Positions 31,074 to 49,107 are shown, counted from the stretch's first letter. The stretch is DNA of 64,000 bases from Blastocatellia bacterium (GCA_963765495.1 CAVXWP010000001.1:1184001-1248000); one strand, 5' to 3'. A program made the numbers and translations. Notes: generated from the sequence alone by a model not told the origin.

Positions 31074-34000
31074 TTATCTGATCGGCAGGCTCGGGTCGCC
31101 AAACAGTATCCACGTACGCCGAACATCCGGGTCATTTATCGCCTGCTTGGCTTTTATTATCGCTTCGCCTATCGTCACGGGCTGGCCTGTTCTATTTTTT
31201 ACAGCGAATAACTGGCGATACAATTCCCGGTTCATCTGTGCCTGGGCGTCGGGCGCGGTCAGGGCCGATGATGCCCAGACGGCTACCGCTCCGCCTTCGG
31301 ATTTCATCAACGCTTCTGCAAGGCTGTCTGAGTGCGGGTCCTGAAATAATCCGTTCAAACAGGTCATCGTCAGAAACAGCGATAACTTGTTCTGATTTGT
31401 GAGCGTCGCGGCATCTTCTCTCGCAAACAGCCCGCCACGCCAGAGGCCGAGTGACCCGTGTCCGGCGTAATTGACCAGAATTTTTCCACGGTTGATTGCC
31501 AAGATAATCTGCGCCCGCGCTTCGGTATCGCTCATCTGTGATCGAAACACCTCTTCGACGGCCACTCCCCCGGGCAAATAGTCGCGAACTGCGCGGCTGG
31601 CTGCTTCGAAATCGAATCCATCGTTGCGATCCGTTACCATCAAGACGCCTGTGCTCCTTCCCTGCTGATCGAATCTGATGAGTTTTTCTATCATCGTTTC
31701 AGCCTCGCTTCGAGTGCGAGCGGGCAAACGCCCTACGGCCATTTCAGGCACTCCATCCGCGTTGAAATCGACAAGCCAGTCGTCGCTTGCCGTCTCGTGC
31801 ACAGATGTCTCTACAAGGCGAGTGGGCACAAGGTCCCAGTCCCCGAACCCCAGATGATTGCGCGGGTCAAAGCTCGAATCCCCAACCAGGAGCACAAACC
31901 TCGGCGGCTTTTTCCAGTTGCTCTTCGCGCAGGCGAGAAAATCCCGAACGGCGAAAGGGGACCGCGCCCCATAATTGAATTCGTCATACAGGTCTTCGAC
32001 ATCTATCACAGCCACCGCGAGGTGCTGGCTTTGACGAAGCGTTACGAGCGGCGCTACCTGATCGGCAAAGTCGCGATAGGTTATGACAACCATATCAGCG
32101 CCCTGCCTCTTTTTGTTCCACGTCGAGGGCTGATTGGGGGTGATTGCGGCGGGGTGATTCAGATTCTCATCCGATACGGCGAGCATCACTCTCGCGCCCG
32201 CATCGGGCGAGGCTACCCTGATTGCAAATTCCTTCCCGTCCGCCTCTATTGACCCGATGATCTCTTTTGGCATATTTGGATCGGTGATGTCAAAGACGCG
32301 AATATCGGTTTGATCAAACCCGGTGATACGCGCTTCCTCCTGACCCGTGAAACTAAACATCAGGGTATTGTCATCGGCGCGGAAAGTGTGTGGATAGGTG
32401 AGGCGAATATAATCAATCAGGCTGACATCGGTGCTTCCGCCTTCGGCTCGCAGGCTAACCGTATTGTTTCCCGCGATCAGCAGAGAAGCGGGAATGGCGA
32501 AGCTTGAAACCGCGTGCGCCTGGCCATCGAAACTGATCGTGCCGAGGTCCGCCTCGTTGAGCAAGACTCTGATTATATGATCGGGCGTCGAGTCGGGCAG
32601 AGAGGTCACGCCTTGCAGGGCCACTTCCAGAATAGCCTGTCCCGAAGATAACGTGTCGAGGTTTGTCAGGATGAGGTCTTGAGAGACTGCGCTATCGGTT
32701 ACGGCAGGTCCAAAGAAATTATCTGCGTCACCGTTCTTGAGAGAGTCGAAGTAATTTATCCGTTCTTTGCGCTCGATGGTAAAAGGGAAATTCTGGGCCG
32801 TGCCGGGAGGCGCTTTCAATCCGGGCGAGACGATCAGGCGCAGCCCCGCCTCGTCTCCCCGTACGAGCCAGTAAATATGAGCGTCCGTCCACAAGGTGTC
32901 GAGCGGTGTGGCGTAAAATTCTATTGAATCACCCGGTTCAAGTCTCTCAATTGACTCTCCGTTTACAAGGATAGGAATCTGTCGGCCATCAACAAAGAGT
33001 TGAAGCAGGCGAGGGTCCGTTTCGGGATCAAGCCCGGCGGCTACGAGTTCGGGCTGAGTCACGCGAAACCATCCGGCCTGCTGGATCGAAAGTTTGATGC
33101 CCGGTTTTGCTGCGATGTCCCATTGCGTCAGAATGTCGGCAGGCGAAGGCTGTAAAGCAATCGAGGGGGGCACCTGTCTTTCGGCAAAAGGGTCAACCGT
33201 CGCCGGAGATCGCAGCCTGCCGAGCAGAAGCGGCGCGGTCTCAGGCGGTATTTCATCCGAACGGGTGGGAATTAAAGGTCCGTGCAGGCGGCTTTTGCCG
33301 TTCAGGTCGATATCTTCAATCCAGTAGACTGCGAAATCAGCGTCTTTCGGAATAGCGTCAAACCATGCGTATGATTGCCCGGCAGTCAGGGCGATGTTTG
33401 CGCCCGTCCTGAGCGCCGACCCTGCGACAAGCGAAGAGTTTATACGTGTGCGTTTGCCGCTCGTTTCTCGATAGATGTTGAATCCGAGATTGTTTCGCTC
33501 ATAGCCGGTCCGCCATTCCAGAAACACGCCCTTATCGGTTTGCACGGCATTAAAAGAGTCCATATCTATGGCGGTCGGGGCCGCGTTTGCGACTATGGAA
33601 AAATCGTCGATGCCAAGCGCCTGCGCGCTGGAAATGGTTGTCCCTGATGTAACCGAGTAATTCCATGCAAGGAACAGATCGCCTCCGACAGCAACGGTGA
33701 CATTTAGAAGCTGATTGCTGATTGAAAGGGTCGCTCCGGGTGCAGCCGCAAATCCGTTACTATTCGCATCGGCGGGAAAACTGGTGAGAAAAGCGGGGCC
33801 TGCCGAAATCCAACTGGCTCCATCGAGCGAATAATACATCTGAATCTGGAAGCCTGCCGGGTTGGACCCGTTTCGATATTTTTCCACGTTGTAAGAGATG
33901 CTTACGCTTGAGATAAGCTGGCCCGTATCGTTGAGGAACTGAGCATAAAGGTTTCCACTCTGTGTGCCACTGCCTGCTGAAATCCAGCCGACAGCCCTGT

Positions 34001-34325
34001 CTGTCGCCGTTGCTTCATCTCCTGCGCCGTAGTTGTAAATGCCATTCGCGGCGTTATTGGCCATACCATTGCCATCTCTGCGCTCGGTTGTGGTTACTGC
34101 GGCTGCGTATGTGCCAACCGTGCGGACTGTCGCCTGTTTATCGACCTTCCAACCCGCAGGCAATGTGGCCGTAGCTGTTGTTCCAAGGCTGTCGAAATCT
34201 TGTGTGTAAGGAGACGAGGGCGGCAGCGAGACTTGAGCCCGCACCGCCAGGCTCGATACAAAAGCAAGAAAAAAACAGATGGCACCGGTTAGAATAAACC
34301 TCCTGATTAATATGGTCATACTCAT
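31074..34325 (-). CDS. secreted C25 family (gingipain/PorU-like) cysteine peptidase
   Basis: Signal peptide; Ig-like 'PTA..F.A...W.T..E..N.GFN.YR' module; 'VEDLYDEF', 'FVLLVGD', 'VGRLP', catalytic 'NYAGHGS' and 'MTCLNG', C-terminal 'LFGDP'; GAGGAGG-like RBS before ATG 34325. Confidence 0.85.
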   Translation of the reverse strand: MSMTILIRRFILTGAICFFLAFVSSLAVRAQVSLPPSSPYTQDFDSLGTTATATLPAGWKVDKQATVRTVGTYAAAVTTTERRDGNGMANNAANGIYNYGAGDEATATDRAVGWISAGSGTQSGNLYAQFLNDTGQLISSVSISYNVEKYRNGSNPAGFQIQMYYSLDGASWISAGPAFLTSFPADANSNGFAAAPGATLSISNQLLNVTVAVGGDLFLAWNYSVTSGTTISSAQALGIDDFSIVANAAPTAIDMDSFNAVQTDKGVFLEWRTGYERNNLGFNIYRETSGKRTRINSSLVAGSALRTGANIALTAGQSYAWFDAIPKDADFAVYWIEDIDLNGKSRLHGPLIPTRSDEIPPETAPLLLGRLRSPATVDPFAERQVPPSIALQPSPADILTQWDIAAKPGIKLSIQQAGWFRVTQPELVAAGLDPETDPRLLQLFVDGRQIPILVNGESIERLEPGDSIEFYATPLDTLWTDAHIYWLVRGDEAGLRLIVSPGLKAPPGTAQNFPFTIERKERINYFDSLKNGDADNFFGPAVTDSAVSQDLILTNLDTLSSGQAILEVALQGVTSLPDSTPDHIIRVLLNEADLGTISFDGQAHAVSSFAIPASLLIAGNNTVSLRAEGGSTDVSLIDYIRLTYPHTFRADDNTLMFSFTGQEEARITGFDQTDIRVFDITDPNMPKEIIGSIEADGKEFAIRVASPDAGARVMLAVSDENLNHPAAITPNQPSTWNKKRQGADMVVITYRDFADQVAPLVTLRQSQHLAVAVIDVEDLYDEFNYGARSPFAVRDFLACAKSNWKKPPRFVLLVGDSSFDPRNHLGFGDWDLVPTRLVETSVHETASDDWLVDFNADGVPEMAVGRLPARTRSEAETMIEKLIRFDQQGRSTGVLMVTDRNDGFDFEAASRAVRDYLPGGVAVEEVFRSQMSDTEARAQIILAINRGKILVNYAGHGSLGLWRGGLFAREDAATLTNQNKLSLFLTMTCLNGLFQDPHSDSLAEALMKSEGGAVAVWASSALTAPDAQAQMNRELYRQLFAVKNRTGQPVTIGEAIIKAKQAINDPDVRRTWILFGDPSLPIR

Positions 34326-34418
34326 AAAGCCTCCTCTCATAATTTCCCGACGGGCGGCCATACTTCCGGCGCTTGAATACGGGTCTTTGCCCTCGCAGCT
34401 ATCAGGGCAGGCAATCGA

Positions 34419-34904
34419 TTAAAGACACGTGCGCGGAAAACTTACGGAACAACCGGTACATCCTCGCGCCTGGCACTCGGCATCGCTTGAGCATGGAGTG
34501 CCGACGCAACTCGCCGAGGCGGATGCCGCGGGAGCAAGGACGGAAATTACTACCGGGATTGAAATGGATAAGCCAAACTTTCGCACGATGTCTCGCCGCA
34601 AAAGAGGCTGTGCGTACGGGGAGCGCGGCATCCGTCCTTCTAACAGGTGATGTCTTTCCAAAAGCTCCAGGCCATACCGGATTACCTCTTCATCAAGCGG
34701 GCTCATCGCTTTACAATTGAGCCTGATAGCCATCTCGGCTACGGAGGTATTTCCATCACAGAGATTCCAGATGGCAGCGGCGGTCTGATTCAGACAGTAT
34801 GCCCTGTGCCTGTCGAGATCATAGACTAATACTTCGTCCGGCAACTCGGTCGTCAAGATATTGTTTTTCCGCGCGAGTGAGAATGCTTCTCTATTTTTGG
34901 CCAT
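34419..34904 (-). CDS. PqqD/RRE domain fused to twin-arginine leader and 6-Cys peptide
   Basis: aa ~12-90 'ELPDEVLVYD...AYCLNQTAAAIWNLCDG..SV.E...L...LL' is the PqqD pattern; then 'LRRDIVRKFG...IPVVISVLAPAASASAS' and C-x4-C-x5-C-x4-C-x2-C-x7-C. Confidence 0.85.
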   Translation of the reverse strand: MAKNREAFSLARKNNILTTELPDEVLVYDLDRHRAYCLNQTAAAIWNLCDGNTSVAEMAIRLNCKAMSPLDEEVIRYGLELLERHHLLEGRMPRSPYAQPLLRRDIVRKFGLSISIPVVISVLAPAASASASCVGTPCSSDAECQARGCTGCSVSFPRTCL

Positions 34905-35277
34905 AGCTATCGCTCACCCTCGAATAAGGGCTCAGAAACAAGACTCTCGTTTAGCCCCCTTGCCCGCAACGGCAAATCGTTACGAGCGAAGGCTTGTGAA
35001 ATGCCTTGTTGTAATGTTCTTATTCTTTATCCAACCATAGTTTGGCTATAACTAAGGTTAGCACCGTAAAAGATTGATTGATTTTCGGCGTCACCTGGGG
35101 ACAGACGCCGCGTGACGGTTACTACAGGCCGCTATCGTATTCCTCTTTTCTCTGCAAGTCAAGAGGATCGACTCGCTGAAATGGTCATAAATATCATGCC
35201 CCGAAGGATTAATGGGCCCGTCTTGATTTGATCTTGAAAAAGCCCGTCTCAGAGGCCAAAAATATCTACCAAACGGC

Positions 35278-35306
35278 TTGACAGAGTGAGGGTAACTGGA
35301 TAATGT
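35278..35306 (+). promoter_or_regulatory. sigma70-type promoter upstream of rmlC (long leader)
   Basis: TTGACA(35278-83)-17 nt-TAATGT(35301-06). Confidence 0.5.
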
Positions 35307-35522
35307 TTTCCGCTTAGAAGCTTTATATAAACACTTTTTCTTATGACTATCCGACAGATAAAGAGGGAGGCAGTGGTAATATAATTCTTCAATAACTATA
35401 ATGCAATTTTGGGCTTTAGCGCAGGCACCTCAATACTCTAAATATCGCTTCCCCCAGGCTAAGAATTTTATGCTCTTTTGTGGTGGATTTTTTATGCGTC
35501 CGACTGCAGGCAAACTATTTAT

Positions 35523-35637
35523 ATGAAGCAGTGCCCCCCACTGCTGCTTCATGTTCAAATGTTAAAGATTGCCACCTATTGTGGCTTCCCTCAGGGGCTA
35601 AACCATTGCAAGGCATAGCCTGCTCTATTTGAACATG
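35523..35637 (+). promoter_or_regulatory. candidate structured cis-regulatory RNA, copy 1
   Basis: 37-nt core 35571-35607 is 31/37 identical to 38771-38807; hairpins GCCAC/GTGGC and CCC/GGG; outer stem CATGTTCAAAT/ATTTGAACATG. Confidence 0.6.
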
Positions 35638-35669
35638 CTATAACCTTTATCGGTTTATCACTTTTTTTT

Positions 35670-36236
35670 ATGAGGCTGATCGAAACCAATCTTCCCGAAG
35701 TGAAGCTGATAGAGCCTTCTATATTTTCTGATGAGCGGGGATTTTTTTTTGAGAGCTACAACCTTTCGCGATTTGCTGAACTCGGTATAAAAAACAATTT
35801 CGTACAGGATAATCACTCAAAATCAATCAAAGGCACGATCAGGGGGTTGCATTATCAACTGAATCATCCTCAGGCAAAACTTTGCCGCGTGACCCGGGGT
35901 GAAGTCCTCGATGTGGTCGTAGACATACGCGCGGGCTCTCCGTATTTCGGCAAATACACGAGCGCGATTTTGTCGGCTGAAAACCATCGCCAGATTTATA
36001 TCCCCGAAGGGTTCGCTCACGGTTTTCAGGTTCTATCGAGTGTGGCGGAGTTCCTCTATAAGTGCAGCGATTTCTACTACGCGGAGGACGAACGAGGCGT
36101 TTTGTGGTGTGATCCTGAAATAGGCATCGATTGGCGGGGAGATAACCCCATTCTTTCAGAAAAGGACCTGCGAAACCCGAGGCTTCGAGATATTGAGGTC
36201 TCACAGTTGCCGAGATTTTCAGAGGATAGTAAATGA
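35670..36236 (+). CDS. rfbC: dTDP-4-dehydrorhamnose 3,5-epimerase
   Basis: 'DERGFFFESY', 'QDNHS', 'RGLHYQ', 'GFAHGF', 'LSEKD'. Confidence 0.95.
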   Translation: MRLIETNLPEVKLIEPSIFSDERGFFFESYNLSRFAELGIKNNFVQDNHSKSIKGTIRGLHYQLNHPQAKLCRVTRGEVLDVVVDIRAGSPYFGKYTSAILSAENHRQIYIPEGFAHGFQVLSSVAEFLYKCSDFYYAEDERGVLWCDPEIGIDWRGDNPILSEKDLRNPRLRDIEVSQLPRFSEDSK

Positions 36237-36952
36237 AGGGAATCGTACTTGCGGGCGGGCTCGGCACGCGCCTCGCCCCGCTCACAAGAATAACCAACAA
36301 GCACCTTTTGCCTGTCTATGACCGGCCTATGATCTATTATCCCGTCAAGACCTTAGTCGAGGCGGGGATAACCGAGATACTGATCGTGACGGGCGGTAAC
36401 AACGCGGGTGATTTCCTAAAGCTTCTCAGAAACGGGGCCGAGTTTGGGCTGAAACATTTGAACTATGCCTATCAGGAAGGCGAAGGCGGGATAGCGGCGG
36501 CGCTTTCTCTTGCCGAACACTTTGCCGATGGCGGCCCCGTATGCGTCGTCTTAGGGGATAACATCCTTGAGAAAAGCATAGCCGAGCAGGTGAAAAAATT
36601 TCGCCATCAAGGGGCGGGGGCAAAAATACTGCTCAGCGAAGTAAGCGACCCCGAGCGTTTCGGAGTCCCCGTATTTGAAGGCGACCGCATACTTCGCATC
36701 GAAGAGAAGCCCGCCATGCCTCAATCGGTATACGCCGTGACGGGCGTTTATATGTACGACAGCCGGGTATTTGAAATCATAAAGACATTGCACCCGAGCG
36801 GGCGAGGCGAACTTGAGATCACCGATGTGAATAACAACTACATCGAACGAGGCGATATGACCTGGGACGTATTGGATGGCTGGTGGACCGACGCCGGGAC
36901 ATTCGACAGTTTGCTTCGGGCATCGAATCTCGTAGCCAAAATCAAAGAGTGA
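36233..36952 (+). CDS. rfbA: glucose-1-phosphate thymidylyltransferase (short RmlA/SpsI type)
   Basis: 'GIVLAGGLGTRL', 'NKHLLPVYD', 'EEKP', 'RGELEITD', 'WTDAGT'. Confidence 0.88.
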   Translation: MKGIVLAGGLGTRLAPLTRITNKHLLPVYDRPMIYYPVKTLVEAGITEILIVTGGNNAGDFLKLLRNGAEFGLKHLNYAYQEGEGGIAAALSLAEHFADGGPVCVVLGDNILEKSIAEQVKKFRHQGAGAKILLSEVSDPERFGVPVFEGDRILRIEEKPAMPQSVYAVTGVYMYDSRVFEIIKTLHPSGRGELEITDVNNNYIERGDMTWDVLDGWWTDAGTFDSLLRASNLVAKIKE

Positions 36953-37151
36953 TATAGCCTCGCAAGCGAAGTTGAAGCTGGCACAGGTTATTGCCTTTTA
37001 GAATTCCGCGTTTATAAAGTTATGCGGTTGACGAAAGCCCAACAGTCTGGCAGAAAGACATATTATATACTTCGTCCCAGCTAACCAATTGGTACTCGAC
37101 TACAGGTTGAGCAATAAACTTTTGGCTTATGCGTCTTAGATTTATCGAAAA

Positions 37152-38243
37152 GTGATAAACAGAAAGGAGAGCGAAAGGAAAGCCGGAACTGGCAATCTGT
37201 TAGCGTCATTACTCACCGGTTCGTGGAGAGATGCCCCACCCGTTGTGGAGCAGTCTGGTGAGGAACTGGCCAGGGCTTCTTCTCTGCTTGTAGGGTCTGG
37301 GGCATCGGGGCTTTGCTGGTGGCGGATACGCAATTCCGAACTGCGATCATCACCCGTAGCCGTTCAACATCAGCAGGCATACAGATTTCAAACCGTCCGG
37401 GCTGCCCTTCACGAACGCGAAATCAAAGAGGTCTTCGCGCTTTTGCGCTCGGCTGGAATAGAGCCGATACTGATCAAAGGATGGGCAACTTCCCGGCTCT
37501 ATCCCGAGAAGGGCTTGCGTCCGACAGGAGATATTGACCTCTTCATACTTCCTGAGCAGCGACAGACGGCGATAACCGCGCTTGAGGCCCGGGAGGGCTA
37601 CCGGACTGATGTTGACTTCCAACACGACGACCTCGACACCTTGGGTAAACGGGCTGTCGAGGAACTATATGTTCGCTCGCAGACGGTCAGACTCGAAGAG
37701 GCGGAGATTCGACTGCTCGGGCCTGAGGATCATCTGCGGTTATTATGCATGCACCTGCTGCGGCATGGTGCATATCGCCCTTTGTGGCTTTGCGATATAG
37801 CGCTTGAGGTAGAATCGCGGCCTTCTGATTTTGACTGGGACCTCTGTTTTGGGAAAGATCGCCGCCGCGCAGACTGGGTCGCCTGCACAATCGCCTTAGC
37901 GCATCAGTTGCTTGGTGCCAGGGTGGATAATACTCCTGTGGAGAATAAGGCCGGGAATCTGCCGGGATGGCTTATTCCAACGGTGCTGAAACAATGGGAG
38001 GCCCCTTTTGCAACGCGCCACGGCGAAAACAGACACAGGGCTCCCATGATAACTTACCTGCGTAACCCTCGTGGTTTGCTGAAAGATTTAGGGAACCGCT
38101 GGCCCGATCCTATCTCTGCAACCGTGAGCGTCAACGGGTCTTTCAATAAGACTCCAAGGTTCTTTTACCAACTGGGCAATTGTTTTTCCCGGATAATGGG
38201 ATTTATTTCCCGGCTGCCCGGATTGATGCAGGCGGACAAATGA
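37152..38243 (+). CDS. uncharacterised nucleotidyltransferase (NTP_transf_5-like)
   Basis: 'ILIKGW...LRPTGDIDL', 'VDFQ', 'HLLRHG..RPLWLCD'. Confidence 0.8.
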   Translation: MINRKESERKAGTGNLLASLLTGSWRDAPPVVEQSGEELARASSLLVGSGASGLCWWRIRNSELRSSPVAVQHQQAYRFQTVRAALHEREIKEVFALLRSAGIEPILIKGWATSRLYPEKGLRPTGDIDLFILPEQRQTAITALEAREGYRTDVDFQHDDLDTLGKRAVEELYVRSQTVRLEEAEIRLLGPEDHLRLLCMHLLRHGAYRPLWLCDIALEVESRPSDFDWDLCFGKDRRRADWVACTIALAHQLLGARVDNTPVENKAGNLPGWLIPTVLKQWEAPFATRHGENRHRAPMITYLRNPRGLLKDLGNRWPDPISATVSVNGSFNKTPRFFYQLGNCFSRIMGFISRLPGLMQADK

Positions 38244-38488
38244 GGCCGCAAAAAGGCAGGGACCTACCTCAGGGCCATTCAGTTTTCCAAAATGTAGAAC
38301 TGGAAAATAGAAATAGGCCGGGACGAATCCGCGCTAATCCGCCGCATCCGCGTCCGTCCCGGCCTATTCCCACTCGCCTTTCGTTCGAATTAACCTGCAA
38401 TAATTTTGTCGCATACAGCCCGCTACTCAAAAACTGAATGGCCCTGGGAGCCTACCTGATCTGACGACTCGAGAAACGGTCTTAATTC

Positions 38489-38517
38489 TTGACAGGACAT
38501 GGATGGTACGGTATGGT
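38489..38517 (+). promoter_or_regulatory. sigma70-type promoter upstream of the DegT-family gene (long leader)
   Basis: TTGACA(38489-94)-17 nt-TATGGT(38512-17). Confidence 0.55.
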
Positions 38518-38713
38518 CTTTCACGCCCGGTTTTTTGTGATTGCAGGCTCTAGTTAGGACGAGGAAGCGAGTAAAAAGTTTGGTTCGCACCCTCTGGAAT
38601 TTTGTCCCGGAATTTGTCATAGTACAGATTCCCAAGGTTCTCAAATTGTTTCCCCTGACAGTTAATTTATTTTGGGTTTTATGCCCCTTGTGTTTTCAAA
38701 AGGATTGAAATTA

Positions 38714-38845
38714 ATGAGGTAAGAAATTGCAGTCACCTCATAAAGCTTCTCTTCGTTGAAGCCATAGGCCGCCACAAATTGTGGTTTCCCTCCGGGGCTT
38801 AACAATTTATGGGAGCGGTCTATCTACTGTCATCCGGGACCGCTT
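38714..38845 (+). promoter_or_regulatory. candidate structured cis-regulatory RNA, copy 2
   Basis: Core GCCACAAATTGTGGTTTCCCTCCGGGGCTTAACAATT (38771-38807); flanking stems ATGAGGT/ACCTCAT, CCATA/TATGG, AGCGGTC/GACCGCT. Confidence 0.6.
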
Positions 38846-38869
38846 CACGCATATTTCGAGATAACATAT

Positions 38870-40030
38870 ATGTCAAAAACCAGTTCCGAATTTCAATCCT
38901 CCGAGACTGAGCGCGTTCCATTGCTCGATTTGAAGGCGCAATATGCCGCGATTCGCGAAGAAGTGCGCGCGGCAATTGATCGCGTGGCCGATTCGCAATA
39001 CTTTATCCTTGGGCCGGAGGTCGAGGCGCTCGAGCGCGAGATCGCCGCTTACTCCGAATGCGCCTGCGGGATAGGCGTATCCTCGGGCACGGACGCCCTG
39101 CTTGTGACGCTTATGGCAATGGATGTGAAGCCTGGGGATGAAATAATCACTACGCCGTATTCATTTTTCGCGACGGCTGGTTCTATAGCGCGTCTCGGAG
39201 CAAAGCCGGTCTTCGTCGATATCAACCCCGAGACTTACAACATCGATCCGGCCCTCATAGAAGCCGCGATTACAGAGCGCACTCGCGCCATAATGCCCGT
39301 CCATCTTTACGGGCAGATGGCCAATATGGACCCCGTCTTAGAAGTCGCCCGACGTCACAACCTGTACGTCATCGAAGACGCCGCGCAGGCCATAGGCGCG
39401 GAGTACAAAGGGCGTCGCGCAGGGTCGCTCGGGCATTTCGGGTGCTTCAGCTTCTTTCCTTCAAAGAACCTCGGGGGGTTCGGAGACGGAGGCATGGTCA
39501 CGGCAAATGATCAGACGCTTGCCGAGAGCGTAAAGCTGTTTCGCAATCACGGGTATAAACCGAAATATTACAACAAGGTGCTTGGCGGAAATTTCAGGCT
39601 CGATGCGATTCAAGCCGCTGTCCTGCGCGTGAAATTGAAATATCTCGACAACTGGACTGCCGGGCGCAGGCGTAATGCCGACGCTTATCGCGAGCTTTTT
39701 CGCGCGGCAGGTCTTACCGAAAAACGCGGGATCGTGATGCCTTTTGAGGCCGAAGATTGTCGCCATATCTACAACCAGTTTGTGATCCGCGCGCCCGAAA
39801 GAGATGGGCTTCGCGCCTATCTGAAAGAGCGACAGATAGAGACCGAAATTTATTACCCCGTGCCGCTGCACTTGCAGGAATGCTTTGATGAACTTGGCTA
39901 CAGCGAAGGCCAGTTCCCCTTGAGCGAAGAGGCCGCGCTCTCTACGCTTGCGCTTCCCATCTATCCTGAATTGACACTCGGGCAACAGGAAAGTGTGGTC
40001 CGAGCGATTGAGGGCTTTCTATCCGTATGA
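38870..40030 (+). CDS. DegT/DnrJ/EryC1/StrS sugar aminotransferase (WbpE/WlbC-like)
   Basis: 'DLKAQY', 'ILGPEV', 'SGTDAL', 'EDAAQA', PLP Lys in 'SFFPSKNLG', 'RLDAIQAA'. Confidence 0.92.
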
Positions 40031-41412
40031 GCAAGCGGCTTGACCTGGCGATAGCGACGGGATTGCTTTTTACGGTTGGATTTACCGCGCTCGCTTATGG
40101 AACGGTCGAAGCCTGGTCTGTCGCCGTATTCGAATTTCTCGTAACCGCGCTCGTAGTGCTCTGGGCAGCAAAGGCTGTCGCGGATAAACACCTCTCGGTA
40201 AACATCCCTGCGCTTGCGCTCCCGCTCGGAGCGTTTTTCCTTTTCGGTCTCGCGCAATCGGTGGCACTGACGGGCAGCGACGGAACCATCAAAAGCCTTT
40301 CGATGGATGTCGAGGCCACGCGGCGGGCGGTCACGGTGATCTTCTTTCTGTTTGTGGCATTTCTGGTTGCCGCAAACTTTTTTACAACGGCTAAACGATT
40401 GCGCGGGCTTGCGATATTCTTGACCCTGTACGGGCTGGGGATGGCGGTCTTTGCCCTCGTACAGCATTTCGCCTGGGACGGCAGATTCTTCTGGATAAGA
40501 CCGACAAAGGCGACCGTATTTGGCTCTTTTGTAAACCGCAATCATTTTGCCGGATATATGGAGATGCTGGTCCCCGTCCCGCTTGCGCTCATAATTTCGC
40601 GCGGCGCGGGCGAAGGGAGACTGATCTACGGGTTTGCCACGGCTCTTATGGGCACCTCGATAGCGATTTCCCAGTCTCGCGGCGGGATCATCAGCCTCGC
40701 CTGTGAACTGATCTTTATCGCGCTTATGAGCAAGCGAGTCTTGAACGCCTCGCGCCCGCAGAGAGGCAATCGGAGTGAGGGTACGATCCGCACCGGTCGA
40801 AGATTTGCCGCCGTGGGCATCGTTGCTGTTTTGATCTTATCGGGCACGGTATGGTGGCTGGGCCTTGCCCCGATAGCCGAGCGATTCGGGCAGATAATAG
40901 ATGATGTCTCAGGCTCCAATGCAAACGAGAACTATTCTCGCGCCGGGATGTGGCGAGACACGCTCGCGCTTGTCCGCGCAAATGCTGTTACGGGCACAGG
41001 GATTGGAGCCTTTGAAACCGTTTATCCTCAGTATGGTCAGAGCGACGGAACGCTCAGGGTAGATTATGCCCATAATGATTATCTGCAAGTGCTTGCTGAT
41101 AGCGGCATAGTGGGCGGGATTATCGCTCTCTCTTTTATCGTTCTTATCGGATTTGCGATGGCGCGGGCTACCAGATCGCGCGACCCTTTTGCCTGTGGGC
41201 TTGCGCTCGGATTGAGCGCGGGCATACTCGGGTTGCTCGTTCATTCCCTGTTTGACTTTAACCTTCAAATACCATCTAATGCGTTGTTATTTCTGGTTCT
41301 CGCGGGAGTGCTCGCGCACCTTGCCTCGACAGTCGATGTATACGGATCAGAAACCACACCCGAGCCTGCTTCAAGTGTTGCTGCGGGTTTTGTTACAAGA
41401 GGGGCTGTATGA
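40027..41412 (+). CDS. O-antigen ligase / Wzy_C family membrane protein
   Basis: About 12 TM helices, 'FVNRNHFAG', 'SRGG', 'R...W', 'GTGIG', 'AHNDYLQ', 'HSLFDF'. Confidence 0.88.
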
Positions 41413-42482
41413 CATTTAGAGCTTTGTTGTCTTATAAATCGGGATTCGTTTATGTCCTGGTTTTCGCGTTTATCTGCGTTTCGGTTCCAGCCGCGTTCTC
41501 TCAGCAGGAAGGTCAGCAAAAACCGCCTCAGAGTTCATATCAGGTGAGCGGAGATGCTACATCGTCGAGCGTTATCGTCTCGCCAAAAGAAGAGTATCGA
41601 ATAGGGGCGAGCGATGTGATTGATATTCAGGTGGTGAGCCTGCCCGAGATGACGAGAACATGGCGTGTCGAAGCCGACGGTACGATAGCATTGCCTTATC
41701 TCGGCATCGTTCGAGCGGCTGACAAACCCGCAAGACAACTGGCTAAAGAGATCGCCGACGGGCTTCGCGGTGATTATCTCGTAGACCCGCAGGTCACGGT
41801 GATCGTAAAGCAGGTCAACAGCCGGACCTTTTTTATTCAGGGAGCGGTCAGAAGCCCGGGCGTTTATCAGATCACGGGTCGCCCTTCGCTTTTAGAGTTG
41901 ATAACGGTCGCCGGGGGACTCAGTAAGAGTTACGGCGCTACCGCTTTCATAATCCGCAGAGTCAAGAGACCTGAAAAAACGAGCGAGACGGCGAATCCTC
42001 AGACGGATGATAAGTCTTCCGGCGAGCCCTCTGAGTCAGACGGGATGCCGCAATTCGAGTTGATAAAGGCGAATATAAACGGCCTTCTTCGCGGCAACTT
42101 CGAGCAGAACATACCCGTTGAGCCCGGCGACATCGTGCACATTCCCGAGACCGATGTATTCTTTGTCGCGGGCGAAGTAAAAGCGCCCGGCTCTTTCCCG
42201 CTTAAGGAAGGCACGACCTTGCGCCAGGCCATATCGCTTGCGCAGGGCACTACATTTGAAGCCGCCACGGGTGAGGGCATCATATTCCGGGATGATACGA
42301 CAAACGGCAAGCGCGAAGAGATAAAGGTTGACATCAAAGATGTCATGTCGGGCAAGAAAGAAGACATTGCCATTCGCGCAAACGACATAATCATAGTTCC
42401 AAACAGCCGGTTCAAATCCGTAAGCGGTGCATTTCTTCGGGCGTTTGGATTGAGCGCCGCGCGCGCGCCCGTAAGATATTAG
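41409..42482 (+). CDS. polysaccharide export protein (Wza-like, SLBB domains)
   Basis: Signal peptide, 'YRIGASDVIDI', 'DGTIALPYLG', 'GAVRSPG', 'GEVKAPG'. Confidence 0.9.
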   Translation: MTFRALLSYKSGFVYVLVFAFICVSVPAAFSQQEGQQKPPQSSYQVSGDATSSSVIVSPKEEYRIGASDVIDIQVVSLPEMTRTWRVEADGTIALPYLGIVRAADKPARQLAKEIADGLRGDYLVDPQVTVIVKQVNSRTFFIQGAVRSPGVYQITGRPSLLELITVAGGLSKSYGATAFIIRRVKRPEKTSETANPQTDDKSSGEPSESDGMPQFELIKANINGLLRGNFEQNIPVEPGDIVHIPETDVFFVAGEVKAPGSFPLKEGTTLRQAISLAQGTTFEAATGEGIIFRDDTTNGKREEIKVDIKDVMSGKKEDIAIRANDIIIVPNSRFKSVSGAFLRAFGLSAARAPVRY

Positions 42483-42726: not shown

Positions 42727-45156
42727 ATGACAGATCAAGGGCTTGAAAAGATCCCACAAAAAGATGTAGCCCCCGCAGAGATTCGACCCAGTTACCCCGG
42801 CGCTTTTGCCGACAGGTATCCTCCTTCCTACGGCTACGGGTATGGCTACGGCGCGGAGGAAGGGCAGCTTAACCTGCGCCAGATCTGGCGGCTTGTTCGC
42901 AAGCGAAAATGGCTGATCATAAGCATCGCCCTGATTGTGACCACAATCGTCACTATCGAATCCTATCGCGCCAAATCCATCTATCGGGCCTCGGCCGTGG
43001 TCGAGATCGGACGCGACATGACCGCGCTCGCAAAAGCCGATAATGTGATCATACAAAATGATGACCCGCTTTATGTCAGCATGGCCACAAGCAAGGTCAT
43101 CATCAAAAGCCCTCCTGTGATCGAAGATGTAGTGACAAAACTCAAGCTCGATCAGAACGAGCGGTTTCTCGATGTGAACGGGAAAAAATCTTTCCTCGAA
43201 GCGCTGCGCGACATAGGGGTCAGGGCGCATGTTTTAAGCGCGCAGCCTACCGAGCCCGCCGTTTTTCAGGTGGCCGAAGATGAACAGCCGCGAGAGAGGC
43301 GAGAGCTTTCACAGAAAGAACTGGACCGTCTGTCTCCATATATAGGGGTGATCGAAGCCAATGTGAGCGCCGACGAGATTCCCGATACGCGGACGATGAG
43401 CATCTCCTTTACCCACACAAACGCGGAGATAGCCGCGGCGGTCGCCAACGCCGTCGCCGAAAGCTATATCAATTTCGATTTTCAAAACAAGACCGAAAAT
43501 GTCACAAAGGCGAGCAACTGGCTCGACCGCTCCACGCGTGAACTCAAGGCCAACGTAGAGAAGGCCGAAAGGGCGCTTGCCGACTACACTCGCGATCATA
43601 ATATTTTCTCGCTCGAAGGCAAAGAGACCTTAACGACCGACAAACTCTCTCGTCTGCACGATCAGGCCACGCGTGCCGAAACCGACCGAATACTCAAAGC
43701 CTCGCTTTATGAGGAGGTGCGAAAGGGGCGGGTCGCGCAGATACCCGAAGGCTTCTCCGATCCGAAGCTTGTCGAACTGCAAAAACAACTGGGCGCGCTT
43801 TCAACGCGTGCCGCCGAATTGAGCGCCACATACGGGCCCAAGCACCCGGAGGTGGTCAAGATCACTCGTCAGATCGAATCCATACAGAGCCAGATAGACG
43901 ACAGTCGCTCGTCTCTCGAAGAGAAACTCAAGGCCGATTACGAGCGCGCCCTTCGCGACGAGCAGGCGCTTAAAGAGGCGCTCGCCCGCGCCAAAGGCGA
44001 AGCCGTACAGCAAAACCAGGATGCTATCCAGTTCAATATCCTGAAGCAGGACGTAGACACGGCCAAATCCCTCTACACGGAATTCCTGGGAAAGATGAAA
44101 CAGGCCGATCTCGAAGTCGCGCAGCAGAAAAACAACCTCCGCCTGATCGCGCCCGCGCGAGTGTCGTGGGTGCCCGTTGGCCCGAATCGCTTTCGCCAGA
44201 TACTTATGGGTCTTTTCCTGAGCCTTGCCGCAGGCATCGGCCTCGCCTATTTCCTCGATTATCTCGATAACACCATAAAGAATGTCGAAGACGTAAACCG
44301 CTACATGCAACTTCCCGCGCTTGGCGTAATCCCGGCCATAGCCTCGGGCCGGGCCGATTCGATCAATGGCAGGGCAGGCGCGCGGGCGACCCTCAAAGGG
44401 AGCCAGTCCATCAATACACCCGAGAACGGATCGCTTTCCAATAGACCGGGCCAAATAATGGCGATGGACAGACGCTCATCGGCTGCGGAAGCCTATCGCG
44501 CGCTCAGAACTTCGGTGATGCTGTCATCGGCGGGCAATCCGCCTAAATGCATACTGGTCACGAGCGGACAGGCGGGCGAAGGCAAAACGACCACCACCAT
44601 CAATACCGCCATTTCGCTTGCGCAACTCGGCTCCTCGGTCCTCATCATAGATTGCGACCTTCGCCGCCCGTCGGTTCACAAGGTCTTTGGCGTAGATCAG
44701 ACGCAGGGGGTCTCAACCTATCTTTCGCGCAATGTCGATATAGACACCCTTATCCAGAAGATGCAGATTCCGAACCTGTCGCTTCTGCCCTGCGGGCCGA
44801 TACCGCCGAACCCGGCCGAGTTGATCAGTTCTCAGAAGATGAAGGACATGCTCAAAATGCTCTCCGAGCGGTTCGACCATATACTGATAGATTCTCCGCC
44901 GCTCATAAACGTTACGGACCCCGTGATACTTTCAACGCTTGTTGACGGCGTCATCCTCGTGATTCACGGCGGCAAGAGCCCGCGCTCTGTCGCGTGGCGC
45001 GCAAAACAGGAACTGACAAGCGTCGGAGCCAAGATATTCGGCGTGGTCCTCAATAACGTAGACCTCACACGCGGAGGATACGACGAGTACTACTACCACA
45101 GACACTATTCCGGCTATTACGAATCGACGGGTACCGAACAGCGAGACGGACAGTAG
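42727..45156 (+). CDS. polysaccharide co-polymerase / BY-kinase (Wzc/GumC)
   Basis: Two TM helices with coiled coil between, 'EAYRALRT', Walker A 'GEGKTT', 'DCDLRRP', 'DSPP', C-terminal Tyr cluster. Confidence 0.93.
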   Translation: MTDQGLEKIPQKDVAPAEIRPSYPGAFADRYPPSYGYGYGYGAEEGQLNLRQIWRLVRKRKWLIISIALIVTTIVTIESYRAKSIYRASAVVEIGRDMTALAKADNVIIQNDDPLYVSMATSKVIIKSPPVIEDVVTKLKLDQNERFLDVNGKKSFLEALRDIGVRAHVLSAQPTEPAVFQVAEDEQPRERRELSQKELDRLSPYIGVIEANVSADEIPDTRTMSISFTHTNAEIAAAVANAVAESYINFDFQNKTENVTKASNWLDRSTRELKANVEKAERALADYTRDHNIFSLEGKETLTTDKLSRLHDQATRAETDRILKASLYEEVRKGRVAQIPEGFSDPKLVELQKQLGALSTRAAELSATYGPKHPEVVKITRQIESIQSQIDDSRSSLEEKLKADYERALRDEQALKEALARAKGEAVQQNQDAIQFNILKQDVDTAKSLYTEFLGKMKQADLEVAQQKNNLRLIAPARVSWVPVGPNRFRQILMGLFLSLAAGIGLAYFLDYLDNTIKNVEDVNRYMQLPALGVIPAIASGRADSINGRAGARATLKGSQSINTPENGSLSNRPGQIMAMDRRSSAAEAYRALRTSVMLSSAGNPPKCILVTSGQAGEGKTTTTINTAISLAQLGSSVLIIDCDLRRPSVHKVFGVDQTQGVSTYLSRNVDIDTLIQKMQIPNLSLLPCGPIPPNPAELISSQKMKDMLKMLSERFDHILIDSPPLINVTDPVILSTLVDGVILVIHGGKSPRSVAWRAKQELTSVGAKIFGVVLNNVDLTRGGYDEYYYHRHYSGYYESTGTEQRDGQ

Positions 45157-45339: not shown

Positions 45340-47175
45340 ATGTGCGGACTTGTAGCTCTTTTTCGATACCATGCTCAATCGCCCGAACTCGACAGAGGCG
45401 AACTGGAAAAGATGCGCGACTATATGAGCGGGCGCGGCCCCGATGGAAGCGGAGCGTGGTTTTCCGCAGACCGCCGCGTGGCGCTCGGCCATCGCCGCCT
45501 TTCAATCGTGGACCTGAGCGATGCGGGCGCTCAGCCGATGACAAATGAAACGGGGAGCCTCCGCCTCGTCTTCAACGGAGAGATATACAATTACCAGCCG
45601 CTCAGAGAACATTTGATCGAACAGGGCCACACGTTTAGCTCGCATGCGGATACGGAAGTCCTGCTTCACCTCTATGAAGAAAAAGGCGAGCGGATGTTTG
45701 ATGACCTTCGCGGCATGTTCGCTTTTGCTTTGTGGGACGCCGAACGCAACGGGCTGCTGCTTGCCCGCGACCACTACGGCATCAAGCCTCTTTACTACGC
45801 CGATGACGGAAGAGTTGTGCGCGTGGCCTCTCAGGTCAAGGCGTTACTGTCCGGGGGCCGCGTCTCGCGCGAGCAGGAGCCTGCCGGGATCTGTGGATTT
45901 TATATTACCGGGAGCGTTCCCGAACCCTTTACAACCTATAAAGAGATACGCTCGGTCCCGGCCGGAAGCTATCTCTGGATAACCGAGCGCGGGGCCAAAG
46001 AGCCTCGCAGCTATTTTTCTGTAGCCGCGATATTTCGAGACGCCCGTCTTGCGGCCTCTGATTCTTCATCGGTTCAACGGGAGCGCGTGGTGGCCGATGC
46101 TCTGCTCGATTCCGTACGCCATCATCTGATCGCCGATGTCCCGGTGATCGCGTTCCTGTCGGCAGGGATCGACTCCGGTTCGATAGTCGGGCTTGCGCGC
46201 GACGCGGGGGCCGAAAATTTACAGACCGTGACGCTGGCCTTTGAAGAGTATCAGGGTAAGGCTGAAAACGAAGCGCCGCTTGCCGCCCAGATTGCCTGCC
46301 ATTACGGCACCCGTCATAGCACGCGCGTGCTCGGCGAAGCGGAATTTTGCGCCGATCTGCCAAAGATACTCGAAGCGATGGACCAGCCTACCATAGACGG
46401 CATAAACACTTATTTCGTAAGCAAGGCATCGGCAGAACTCGGAGTAAAAGCCGCTTTATCTGGGCTTGGCGGAGACGAGCTTTTCGGAGGCTATCCGTCA
46501 TTTCAAGACATACCCCGCTGGGTGGAAAGAGTCGCTGCCGTGGGTCGCGTGCCGGGGCTTGGCAAGGTTGCGCGCTCTTTTGTCGCCCCGTTTATTTCTG
46601 AAAACCGCTCTCCAAAACTCGCGGGGATGATCGAATACGGCGGCACGTATGCTGGCGCTTACCTGCTGCGGAGGGGGCTTTTTATGCCCTGGGAATTAAA
46701 GAACCTGCTTGGCGAAGAGATGGCCTCGGAAGGGCTTCGCCGCTTAAAGCCTCTGGAGTATTTCAACGCCATGCTACAACCCGATCCCGGTCTGCCTTTC
46801 GCCCGCGTGGCCGCGCTTGAGGCGTCTCTTTACATGCGCAATCAATTGCTGCGCGATGCCGATTGGGCCGGTATGGCGCATTCGCTCGAAATCCGAACCC
46901 CGCTTGTGGACGCGCAACTCTTAAAATCGCTCGCTCCAGTCCTGATAAAAGAATCGGCGAGAGGCAAGAGCCTGCTTGCCAAAAGCCCTTCACGCCCGTT
47001 GCCCCGGTCAATCACCGCGCGCCCAAAGACAGGCTTTACCGTCCCCATAAGCCGGTGGATAGAACAAAACAAGAGCCTCGATGTGTGGCGCAAAATTCCC
47101 GAGCTTTCCCGCCCTGGAATTCACTGGTCGCGCCGCTGGGCCTACACCGCGGTCGAACTCGGAGTATCGCTTTAA
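45340..47175 (+). CDS. asnB: asparagine synthetase (Gln-hydrolysing)-like sugar amidotransferase
   Basis: N-terminal 'MCG', 'RGPDG', 'HRRLSIVD', 'FNGEIYN', 'LSAGIDS', 'GGDELFGGY'. Confidence 0.88.
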   Translation: MCGLVALFRYHAQSPELDRGELEKMRDYMSGRGPDGSGAWFSADRRVALGHRRLSIVDLSDAGAQPMTNETGSLRLVFNGEIYNYQPLREHLIEQGHTFSSHADTEVLLHLYEEKGERMFDDLRGMFAFALWDAERNGLLLARDHYGIKPLYYADDGRVVRVASQVKALLSGGRVSREQEPAGICGFYITGSVPEPFTTYKEIRSVPAGSYLWITERGAKEPRSYFSVAAIFRDARLAASDSSSVQRERVVADALLDSVRHHLIADVPVIAFLSAGIDSGSIVGLARDAGAENLQTVTLAFEEYQGKAENEAPLAAQIACHYGTRHSTRVLGEAEFCADLPKILEAMDQPTIDGINTYFVSKASAELGVKAALSGLGGDELFGGYPSFQDIPRWVERVAAVGRVPGLGKVARSFVAPFISENRSPKLAGMIEYGGTYAGAYLLRRGLFMPWELKNLLGEEMASEGLRRLKPLEYFNAMLQPDPGLPFARVAALEASLYMRNQLLRDADWAGMAHSLEIRTPLVDAQLLKSLAPVLIKESARGKSLLAKSPSRPLPRSITARPKTGFTVPISRWIEQNKSLDVWRKIPELSRPGIHWSRRWAYTAVELGVSL

Positions 47176-47178
47176 CAG

Positions 47179-48012
47179 ATGTCTGAAATAAGCCGCGAAG
47201 AGATAGTCATAGAACCGGGCCGGGGCTTTAAGCACTACTGGCGGGACCTCTGGAATTACCGCGAGTTGTTTTACTTTCTGGCCTGGCGCGACATCGCCGT
47301 ACGCTATAAACAGACAGTCATAGGCGTGGCCTGGAGCGTCATCCGGCCCGTGTTGACTATGGCCGTCTTCGTAGTGGTATTCGGGCATCTCGCCAAATTG
47401 CCTTCGGATGGAGTGCCTTATCCGATACTGGTCTTTGCGGCGATGCTGCCGTGGCAGTTCTTTTCAAACGCGCTCTCGGAGAGCAGCAACAGCCTCGTGG
47501 GAAACGCCAATATGATCTCGAAGGTCTACTTCCCGCGCCTCGCGATTCCTGCCAGCGCCGTGATCGTGAGCTTTGTTGATTTCCTGATCTCGTTTGCGGT
47601 GCTTGTGATACTGATGATCTGGTATCAGTTTGCGCCGGGCTGGCGTTTGCTCACTCTCCCGTTTTTTACGCTTCTGGCACTCGGCGCGGCGCTCGGCGCG
47701 GGGCTGTGGTTTGCTTCGCTCAATGTCAAGTATAGAGACTTTCGCTTTATCGTCCCTTTCGTAGTCCAATTCGGGTTGTACATTTCGCCCGTAGGTTTCA
47801 GCAGCCAGATCGTGCCCGCCCGCTGGCGTTTGCTTTATTCCGTCAACCCGCTCGTAGGCGTAATAGACGGGTTTCGCTGGGCGATCCTCGGCGATAATGT
47901 AGAGCTTTACCTGCCGGGTTTTGCGCTCTCGGTAGGGATAGTGATTATGTTACTTGTGAGCGGCGCGTGGTATTTCCGCAGAACCGAAAGAACTTTTGCC
48001 GATGTGATTTGA
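47179..48012 (+). CDS. ABC-2 polysaccharide exporter permease (Wzm)
   Basis: 'RDIAVRYKQT..G..W', 'KVYFPR', 'YRDFR', 'NPL'. Confidence 0.92.
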   Translation: MSEISREEIVIEPGRGFKHYWRDLWNYRELFYFLAWRDIAVRYKQTVIGVAWSVIRPVLTMAVFVVVFGHLAKLPSDGVPYPILVFAAMLPWQFFSNALSESSNSLVGNANMISKVYFPRLAIPASAVIVSFVDFLISFAVLVILMIWYQFAPGWRLLTLPFFTLLALGAALGAGLWFASLNVKYRDFRFIVPFVVQFGLYISPVGFSSQIVPARWRLLYSVNPLVGVIDGFRWAILGDNVELYLPGFALSVGIVIMLLVSGAWYFRRTERTFADVI

Positions 48013-48047
48013 GTGAACGGTAAAAGGTGATTTGGTAGAATAAAGCT

Positions 48048-48386
48048 ATGAACCTCGAAATTGTAGAAGATTCAGTGCCGCTCAGGGTAGATGCATCAGG
48101 AGTAGTGCGCGTCGGTGAAACCAGAGTGTCAATTGATGTGGTGGTTCGAGCATATCTTGAGGGGGCAATACCGGAGGAAATCGCCGAACAATTCCCCTCC
48201 TTGCTACTGGCCGATGTTTATGCGGCAATAACCTACTATCTCAAGCATCGAGATGAAGTTGACAGGTATCTCGGCTGGCGGCAGCAGGAGCGCGAAAAAG
48301 TAAAACAAGAGAACGAAGCAAGGACCAACCCTTCAGGCTTGCGTGAGCGTCTTCTGGCGCGGATGAAATCTTCGACAACAAAATAA
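48048..48386 (+). CDS. DUF433 family antitoxin
   Basis: 'VRVGETRVSID...PEEIAEQFPSL.LADVYAAITYY'. Confidence 0.85.
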   Translation: MNLEIVEDSVPLRVDASGVVRVGETRVSIDVVVRAYLEGAIPEEIAEQFPSLLLADVYAAITYYLKHRDEVDRYLGWRQQEREKVKQENEARTNPSGLRERLLARMKSSTTK

Positions 48387-48740
48387 ATGCTGCGTCTGGC
48401 GACCGATGAGGACTTTAACAATCGAATCTTGAGAGGCTTGTTGCGGCGTATGCCGGAACTTGACATAGTGCGCGTTCAGGATGCCGGATTGCGGGGCAAC
48501 GAAGACCGGGATGTGTTGGAATGGGCAGCAGGTGAAGATCGTGTGCTTTTGACTCACGATGTTTCGACAATGTCGGCATTTGCTTACGAGAGGATTAAGC
48601 AGGGACTGGCGATGCCCGGCATATTTGAGATAAGCCAGGATATGCCGATTGGTCAGGCTATAGACGAGATTATTTTGATAGCGGCGGTTAGCTTAGAGGG
48701 AGAATATGAGGGCCAAGTGCGATACTTGCCGCTAGGGTAA
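48387..48740 (+). CDS. DUF5615 PIN-like toxin
   Basis: 'LATDEDF', 'D..VLEWA...RVLLTHD'; directly follows the DUF433 gene. Confidence 0.85.
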   Translation: MLRLATDEDFNNRILRGLLRRMPELDIVRVQDAGLRGNEDRDVLEWAAGEDRVLLTHDVSTMSAFAYERIKQGLAMPGIFEISQDMPIGQAIDEIILIAAVSLEGEYEGQVRYLPLG

Positions 48741-48821
48741 CAGCCGCGAATATTTACGAATCGAGAGGCGAGTTGATAAGAATGTCTACTTTGGCTCAAC
48801 CCTGTAGATTTTGTGCTGACT

Positions 48822-49034: not shown

Positions 49035-49107
49035 CTTTCTTTCCTTAATGGGTGACGAGCGCATTTCTTTGCCATCGAGACTCGATCAATAGGCTTAGTA
49101 AAACCTA

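Follow-up and report, generated by a model that had tools for sequence, protein, structure and literature searches.

The DNA considered here, a window of 64,000 nucleotides (nt) from a Blastocatellia bacterium (GCA_963765495.1, CAVXWP010000001.1:1184001-1248000), carries two groups of polysaccharide genes on its plus strand, each preceded by a long leader. Behind the first leader, A, Pfam places RmlC and RmlA; behind the second, B, it places DegT, Wzy_C, Poly_export and Wzc, in keeping with the first-pass annotation, which was made from the sequence alone and put polysaccharide genes downstream of both leaders. That annotation also singled out a pair of 37-nt motifs, one in each leader, and sequence reading bears out their positions (35571-35607 and 38771-38807, plus strand) and their identity, 31/37. 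These 37-mers are the cores of two copies, A and B, of an RNA module of ~72 nt, and this module is our subject. It is very probably a cis-acting leader RNA of the operons that it precedes. In the window its parts, and the promoters predicted for the two leaders, are these:

35278-35306, plus strand: predicted sigma70-type promoter of leader A, TTGACA at 35278-35283, a 17-nt spacer and TAATGT at 35301-35306; ends at -249 from the module
35556-35627, plus strand: module copy A, a covariance-model match of 62 bits (E 8e-17 with filters off)
35571-35575 with 35581-35585, plus strand: hairpin P1 of copy A, from the model structure
35588-35590 (CCC) with 35595-35597 (GGG), plus strand: hairpin P2 of copy A, from the model structure
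35598-35603, plus strand: CUAAAC of copy A
35611-35622, plus strand: GG-N8-TG block of copy A
38489-38517, plus strand: predicted sigma70-type promoter of leader B, TTGACA at 38489-38494, a 17-nt spacer and TATGGT at 38512-38517 (10/12 matches); ends at -238 from the module
38756-38827, plus strand: module copy B, a covariance-model match of 65 bits (E 9e-18 with filters off)
38756-38761, plus strand: 5' element UUGAAG of copy B
38771-38775 with 38781-38785, plus strand: P1 of copy B
38788-38790 with 38795-38797, plus strand: P2 of copy B
38798-38803, plus strand: CUUAAC of copy B
38811-38822, plus strand: 3' block of copy B, which ends TA, not TG

Read from 5' to 3', the module comprises a UUGA(A/U)AA-like element, a spacer of ~8 nt, the 5-bp hairpin P1, UU, the hairpin P2 (CCC-loop-GGG), YUUAAC, a second spacer of ~8 nt, and a GG-N8-UG block followed by pyrimidines. 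The covariance model, R1 (72 positions; P1 5 bp, P2 3 bp), was built from relatives. For the analyses below we took the best-scoring 96 of its 154 matches (alignment A5); a MAFFT alignment (A6) holds 95 of these, one copy with a long insertion in P2 having been omitted. P1 carries the structural case. Its positions are 97.7% paired across the 95-copy alignment, and compensatory changes occur at 5/5 pairs—CG 67, UA 15 and UG 11 at one of them, for example, and GC 78 and AU 14 at another—to give 31 distinct helices. The covariation score was matched by 0/500 shuffles, and shifting the partners by a single column lowered pairing from 80% to 46-49%. Among the cells of the P1 alignment 35 are G·U and 4 are A·C, an asymmetry that bespeaks RNA of the same sense as the genes that follow rather than a symmetric DNA site. 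P1, then, is an RNA helix on the gene strand. P2 is invariant except for one CCU/AGG change, and its loop ranges from 4 nt to an extended hairpin of 16 nt. A mutual-information scan of the 96 copies revealed no pairs besides those of P1; a pseudoknot between the 3' arm of P1 and the 3' block, also considered, has no support in the alignment. A covarying helix, a fixed strand and a fixed position relative to genes, which are the general marks of structured cis-regulatory RNAs, are all present in the module.

Within the window, a degenerate 37-nt IUPAC pattern made from both copies matches twice, against 0 matches in 100 shuffles, and with up to 3 mismatches it finds only the same two copies in the whole 7.3-Mb genome. 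The covariance model reaches further. At E<=0.01 its 154 matches lie in 52/53 genomes of the window's family, 1–7 per genome, and in all 20 genera. Four belong to the window's own genome: the two described, which are still the only ones in the window when filters are off, and one each at C7 570136-570206 (+) and C2 264646-264717 (-). In a class-wide sample the module occurs in 33/34 genomes of its own family, in 8/38 of a second family (mostly of one genus) and in 1/78 of the remaining families, and a phylum-wide sample adds 2 weak matches among 149 other genomes. Plain sequence comparison, too, converges on the motif. BLAST of leader A against 40 relatives gives weak matches only, stacked on the motif, and a 21-nt pattern with one mismatch has 20 matches in 16/53 family genomes, against 3 for a reversed control; just 5' of 19 of these 20 lies a small hairpin of variable sequence. 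When one genome per species was searched, the first pattern tried, long and exact, gave 0 matches. The strict 21-nt pattern gave 31 in 185,579 species, 22 of them full-length by the model. The titles of these 22 read 'Blastocatellia bacterium' in 19 cases and 'uncultured Clostridia bacterium' in three (L137, L146 and L157), records that may be mislabelled. The other 9/31 lie in other phyla, and their match to the model is partial or absent. In two genomes a pair of copies stands in tandem, in one orientation and at a distance of ~540 nt, and the interval holds only a short open reading frame (ORF) (G022:C7 163224-163835 and G005:C382 1722-2330).

The module resembles no family in Rfam 15. For the window from 34000 to 40000 a search at E<=10 gave nothing at the module except a 13.6-bit match to Chlorobi-1 on the opposite strand, against a gathering score of 50, and for 20 related loci a search at E<=1 gave no match at the module. 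Families without a match include JUMPstart, EAR/epsC, the cyclic di-GMP (c-di-GMP) riboswitches, wcaG, Acido-1 and Acido-Lenti-1. The last two are the only motifs named for the phylum in the portion of the literature searched. That same portion, the available text of PMC2864571 included, holds no description of the motif that we could find; and the main text of a 2017 survey of 224 motifs makes no mention of Acidobacteria or of polysaccharide, although the motif might be listed in its supplements. In our view the module constitutes a new RNA family, to be placed among the leader signals of long polysaccharide operons. The novelty foreseen in the first-pass annotation is supported in this way by cmscan, and its expectation of covariation and consistent placement agrees with the model built from relatives, which displays both; a location upstream of glycan operons, likewise anticipated, holds in 52/53 family genomes.

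Without exception in the analysed set (96/96 copies), a same-strand ORF starts within 450 nt of the module. Pfam at 1e-5 names 82 of these 96 first ORFs. The commonest, behind 46 copies, is a membrane TPR protein of ~430 aa, often with a CBM_4_9-like end. Then come Wzy_C (10 copies), Wzz/GNVR chain-length or kinase proteins (7), Poly_export (4), fatty-acyl-AMP ligases (FAALs; 3), amine oxidases (2) and a non-ribosomal peptide synthetase (NRPS; 1), along with a glycosyltransferase, DegT, RmlC, a LuxR-type response regulator, TonB_C, PHO4, PilZ, DUF5615 and DUF433, in 1 copy each; 14 have no family at 1e-5, two of them with weaker Wzz matches. The TPR family has no name. Its members, at L127 461-1747, L128 795-2111 and 44 related loci, have one N-terminal membrane helix, TPR repeats, the CBM_4_9-like end and a conserved YFPNSARLNARLA stretch. 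A search for related loci with the TPR protein returned only 2 distant ones. Both TPR genes of the window's genome head TPR-Wzy-Wza-Wzc-Wzx operons, and copy B heads DegT-Wzy-Wza-Wzc and onward. The genes behind the two window copies are as follows, with assignments by Pfam where so marked:

35670-36236, plus strand: RmlC-like, first gene behind copy A (Pfam)
36233-36952, plus strand: RmlA-like nucleotidyltransferase, behind copy A (Pfam)
37152-38243, plus strand: NTP_transf_5, behind copy A (Pfam)
38870-64000, plus strand: same-strand array headed by copy B; the 20 kb that were examined hold 13 genes on this strand, and plus-strand ORFs continue to the end of the window
38870-40030, plus strand: DegT, first gene behind copy B (Pfam)
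40027-41412, plus strand: Wzy_C, copy B array (Pfam)
41409-42482, plus strand: Poly_export, copy B array (Pfam)
42727-45156, plus strand: Wzc-type tyrosine kinase, copy B array
45340-47175, plus strand: Asn-synthase-like amidotransferase, copy B array
47179-50406, plus strand: Wzm/Wzt-like ABC transporter, copy B array

Length is what distinguishes these arrays. We fetched 20 kb downstream of 20 copies, picked only for their long contigs, and of the two window copies. In 18/22 the same-strand array covers 18 kb or more of this stretch, the median being 14.5 genes. Of 150 random operon heads in the window's genome, read with the same crude gene caller, only 2% are as long as 18 kb, and their median length is 2.5 kb. 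Most arrays encode Wzy/Wza/Wzc polysaccharide export; others encode sugar-nucleotide (dTDP-rhamnose) synthesis or FAAL/NRPS functions. The common property of the targets is length, not pathway.

Upstream of the module the picture is equally regular. Both promoters of the first-pass annotation, TTGACA-17-TAATGT and TTGACA-17-TATGGT, are present at 35278-35306 and 38489-38517, and relatives have their like: a search for TTGACA (at most one mismatch), a spacer of 16–18 nt and TAnnnT finds one match in the 300 nt upstream of 45/95 loci. Forty-three of these end between -300 and -210 from the module, against 0 in 95 control coding-sequence windows, and the typical one has a perfect TTGACA with TATGCT or TATCTT as its -10 box. 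Where at least 700 nt of upstream sequence is available (n=34), 25 loci have one match, 17 at -300 to -200, 5 at -400 to -300, 3 farther and 0 nearer than -200. A promoter at least 200 nt upstream sets the predicted start of transcription upstream of the module, as the first-pass annotation had it, so far as sequence analysis can tell. For leaders A and B the start would be expected ~7 nt 3' of the -10 box, near 35313 and 38524. The leader is predicted to be 300–450 nt of untranslated RNA, with the module as its last part.

Other features that the first-pass annotation saw in the two leaders do not travel beyond the window. Each motif begins 99 nt 5' of an ATG (35670 and 38870), as reported, but in relatives of the TPR class (n=46), with the start judged from the conserved N-terminus, the start codon lies 8–141 nt after the module; the 99 nt that the window copies share is thus a coincidence and not a general rule. 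Hairpins upstream of the motif, at 35523-52 and 38714-41, both appear in the minimum-energy folds. The enclosing stem described around each motif is real in copy A, where it has 11 bp, and only there, and no enclosing helix emerged from the mutual-information scan of 96 copies. Compared from -10 box to module, leaders A and B have a best local score of 21 against 18.1 +/- 2.4 for shuffles, of which 76/500 reach it. With similarity at the level of shuffles, neither the shared TTCCCC...TTTTATGC block nor the notion of '~350-nt paralogous leaders' can be upheld: the likeness is limited to the promoter, the length of the leader and the module itself. In short, a spacing of 99 nt, an enclosing stem and the supposed paralogy of the leaders are local to this window.

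Leaders of the TPR class have more in common than these two do. In alignments A7 and A8 they share further conserved blocks 5' of the module (L054, L058, L083, L092 and L106 are examples), among them CGCTTACGGTAT directly after the -10 box, and a hairpin, GTGGGTC-ATTTGAA-GCGTAG-TTCGAAT-CCCAC, whose loop resembles the 3' block of the module. A long-range CCC:GGG pairing proposed by RNAalifold for these leaders involves invariant bases only, and we set it aside, together with a tRNA-like reading of the TTCGAATCC stretch, for which ARAGORN found nothing in 10 TPR-class leaders that contain it. Across the wider set, CCCCC occurs in the upstream 80 nt of 24/95 copies, against 7 in shuffles, often as ATCCCCC followed by A or T. 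This C-run lies 25–60 nt before the module, at a variable distance, and in some loci pairs with a nearby GGGG. A Rut-like excess of C over G in the leaders is weak.

Two parts of the module recall known elongation signals. In the 3' block, GG...RG..TG, the bases G50, G51, G57, T60 and G62 are kept in 91, 90, 86, 89 and 83 of 95 copies, and GG-N8-TG is found in 70/95 copies, copy A included, against 12.2 in shuffles. The ops element of RfaH, ops12, is GGCGGTAGCGTG; its GG and TG flanks induce a pause, and TG at positions 11-12 is common to all validated RfaH targets, according to the available text of PMC5995543. Aligned by eye with ops12, the consensus of the block, GGGCGNAGYCTG, keeps the GG and TG flanks and A7 and G8, with positions 3 and 4 swapped and position 6 variable, and is identical at 8/12 positions; copy A is identical at 7/12. 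The flanks of ops correspond to the G(-10)/Y(-1)/G(+1) of the consensus pause. The consensus of the block thus has GG at its upstream edge and TG at 11-12, the arrangement expected of a pause site, and polymerase might pause there. At the other end of the module, TTGA[AT]A[AGT] occurs between -24 and -8 before P1 in 30/95 copies, against 1.07 in shuffles. In the window's genome CTTTGAAAAC is found in the 16S leaders and CTTTGATAATC in the 16S-23S spacers; judging by the boxA consensus, we take both to be the boxA of the rRNA (rrn) operons. Module and rrn sequences share the 3' half only, TTTGA[AT]AA, and by eye CTTTGA is seen in ~6 of the listed elements. In the available text of the two papers concerned, NusB-NusE recognise 8 nt of boxA (PMC3177189), and boxA elements are known outside rRNA operons, upstream of suhB and other genes (PMC5725501).

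What might such a module do? The first-pass annotation took it for a novel regulatory RNA or a site at which an antiterminator is loaded, and of that interpretation one part stands: this is a new leader element, strand-specific and covarying. The other part, loading of a NusG paralog of the RfaH, UpxY or LoaP type, does not. The window's genome, 97.9% complete, encodes one NusG (PF02357, 1 match), and two or more are found in only 15/53 family genomes, while 52/53 carry the module. A NusG paralog is therefore not the answer. We put at about 0.45-0.5 the probability that the module acts on transcription elongation, by antitermination coupled to a pause. A strong promoter, a long leader, an RNA module with a pause-like block, and target operons that are very long and mixed in function are facts that an elongation signal joins best. 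RNA polymerase would slow at GG-N8-UG, a block similar both to ops and to the consensus pause, with its U (35621 in copy A) as the expected pause position, and the nascent P1-P2-YUUAAC RNA would at that moment be just out of the exit channel. This RNA, alone or with a general factor that it recruits—Nus factors, perhaps, by way of the boxA-like 5' element—would then render the polymerase resistant to premature termination of the Rho type, and the result would be read-through of the long leader and of an array of at least 18 kb. Pausing, factor loading and antitermination are all steps that we infer. The particular proposal that antitermination is processive and needs no NusG paralog, relying on nascent RNA and an ops-like pause either by themselves or by way of the Nus machinery and the half-boxA, we offer tentatively, and would not be surprised to see it fail. 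No platform of the intrinsic-terminator kind is seen after the module: sites that resemble such terminators lie within 150 nt of it in 20/94 loci, against 14 and 14 in controls.

Several observations count against an elongation signal, or at least give it less to stand on. Related genomes are not independent samples, to begin with. P2, being invariant, gives no covariation; a third hairpin, P3 (GGGCG-loop-UGCCC), which the 3' block could possibly form, is paired in 61%, and the stems on its flanks do not exceed those of chimeric controls in length. Neither module nor leader folds better than shuffles, and for segments of the upstream leader the mean z is -0.01 to -0.20 over 95 loci, also no better than shuffles; with folding energy at that level, the case for an RNA is one of conservation and covariation. 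GG-N8-TG is absent from 25/95 copies, and the block of copy B ends in TA. The central bases of ops that RfaH reads (C3, G4, T6) differ or vary in the block, and the module does not conserve G-A/C-T-C, which makes up the 5' half of the rrn boxA-like sequence. A dedicated factor did not come to light, the NusG count of the genome being one. Among the targets, 4/22 arrays are shorter than 18 kb, and in a few cases the module stands before a lone unrelated gene (PHO4, TonB_C, PilZ). In copies that end 8–20 nt before the start codon, finally, an effect on translation is equally plausible.

This last point lends most to explanations at the level of translation. The module might be the site of an RNA-binding protein that co-regulates its targets post-transcriptionally, by blocking translation or altering the stability of the mRNA, much as CsrA does at the pgaABCD leader in Escherichia coli. 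It ends 8–141 nt before the start codon, in some cases within the footprint of the ribosome; its copies, 1–7 per genome, are distributed like a regulon of narrow, lineage-specific range; its single-stranded stretches (UU, YUUAAC and the 3' block) are conserved; and the promoters upstream are strong and look constitutive. We nevertheless think it unlikely, since no candidate protein was found: CsrA was not detected in the window's own genome, the module lacks the signature GGA in a loop, and the genes that lie divergently beside two copies show no relation to one another and include no shared regulator. Nor would such a protein explain the extreme length of the operons. An aptamer, part of a new riboswitch for some envelope-linked signal such as c-di-GMP or a nucleotide sugar, would suit the position in the 5' untranslated region, the conserved junction nucleotides between small helices, the association with polysaccharide genes (and, once, with a PilZ-domain gene) and the want of an Rfam match. 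Its targets, though, span the unrelated pathways of polysaccharide export, rhamnose, FAAL/NRPS and amine oxidase, and it occurs in hardly more than one family. We saw no expression platform, terminators not being enriched and no conserved pairing with the ribosome-binding site having emerged, and only one helix covaries; we consider this reading improbable.

Explanations that dispense with RNA altogether fare worse. P1 is an inverted repeat, GCCGC-N5-GCGGC, on which a dimeric factor might sit, and at 8–141 nt before the first gene the module stands where the proximal part of a promoter for an alternative sigma factor could; non-template DNA, moreover, can be read, as ops illustrates in the available text on that system. 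Yet an operator would hardly be strand-asymmetric, with G·U so far in excess of A·C, or change the sequence of its arms through 31 helices while pairing is kept, and the predicted promoter is at least 200 nt away on the upstream side. The variable loop of P2 would upset promoter spacing, which by eye fits neither -24/-12 nor -35/-10 in any case. We regard a DNA element as very improbable. Least probable of all, to the point that we would be astonished by it, is a generic dispersed repeat, of the kind of repetitive extragenic palindromes or miniature inverted-repeat transposable elements, or a processing site with no part in regulation. The module is multi-copy and occasionally tandem; a repeat, however, would hardly be limited to 1–7 copies per genome, be followed on the same strand by an ORF in every analysed copy, keep a constrained distance from a promoter and persist across 20 genera, and no flanking repeats were seen.

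The surroundings of the two window copies have peculiarities of their own. Between the leaders, just 3' of NTP_transf_5, a long GC-rich inverted repeat (GGCCGGGACG...CGTCCCGGCC, at 38308-38372) that lacks a U-tract may mark the end of the first transcription unit. Wzy, Wza and Wzc share their array with the Wzm/Wzt-like ABC exporter pair, so that this cluster combines two export routes. On the flanks of each polysaccharide cluster of the genome stand a giant Peptidase_C25 protein (1095 and 1192 aa), a protein like PqqD or HprK-related kinase A, and an NTP_transf_5 nucleotidyltransferase; these occur at 31074-34904 (minus strand) and 37152-38243 of the window, and at locus L129 90-6329. The set is reminiscent of the NCBIfam system 'HPr-rel-A'.

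Acidobacteria rank with the most abundant bacteria of soil, and exopolysaccharides are thought to underlie their persistence there. The covariance model provides a sequence handle by which the heads of the very large polysaccharide operons can be recognised throughout a whole family of uncultured bacteria. If an elongation signal it is, then long operons can be read through without an RfaH-type paralog, and the set of antitermination signals is wider than supposed: the Blastocatellia would possess a functional analogue of ops/RfaH, put together from different parts, for polysaccharide and NRPS/FAAL operons of 20 kb and more. The module is only 72 nt long and so can be tested in vitro.

Among known systems the closest in circumstance is ops/JUMPstart with RfaH. 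There, as here, very long polysaccharide operons carry the signal in a long untranslated leader, the signal includes 12 nt with GG and TG flanks 8 nt apart, and the presumed role, protection of distal genes, is the same. In contrast to that system, most genomes with the module lack an RfaH-type NusG paralog, the best-supported part is the upstream portion with its RNA hairpin structure, which ops does not have, and Rfam, JUMPstart included, does not match it. LoaP and UpxY are NusG paralogs that serve polysaccharide and polyketide operons, and they need a paralog encoded in the genome. Their target classes, long polysaccharide and FAAL/NRPS-type operons, are those of the module, and a small hairpin in the leader RNA is part of their signal; the paralog they require was not found in the window's genome. 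EAR, in the eps operon of Bacillus, and the put RNAs of phage HK022 are structured RNAs that act in cis to make polymerase resistant to termination with no dedicated protein. The put RNAs have two hairpins and a total size similar to that of the module, and EAR acts in an exopolysaccharide operon. Neither matches the module in sequence or structure by cmscan, however, and EAR lies inside its operon, whereas the module stands at the operon head. BoxA and nut, finally, are signals in leader RNA made of conserved single-stranded sequence and hairpins, for which general factors suffice, as would fit the absence of a paralog. The 5' element of the module equals the 3' half of the boxA-like sequences in the genome's own rrn operons; the module does not conserve the other half of boxA, and the rrn leaders contain nothing that corresponds to P1, P2, YUUAAC and the 3' block.

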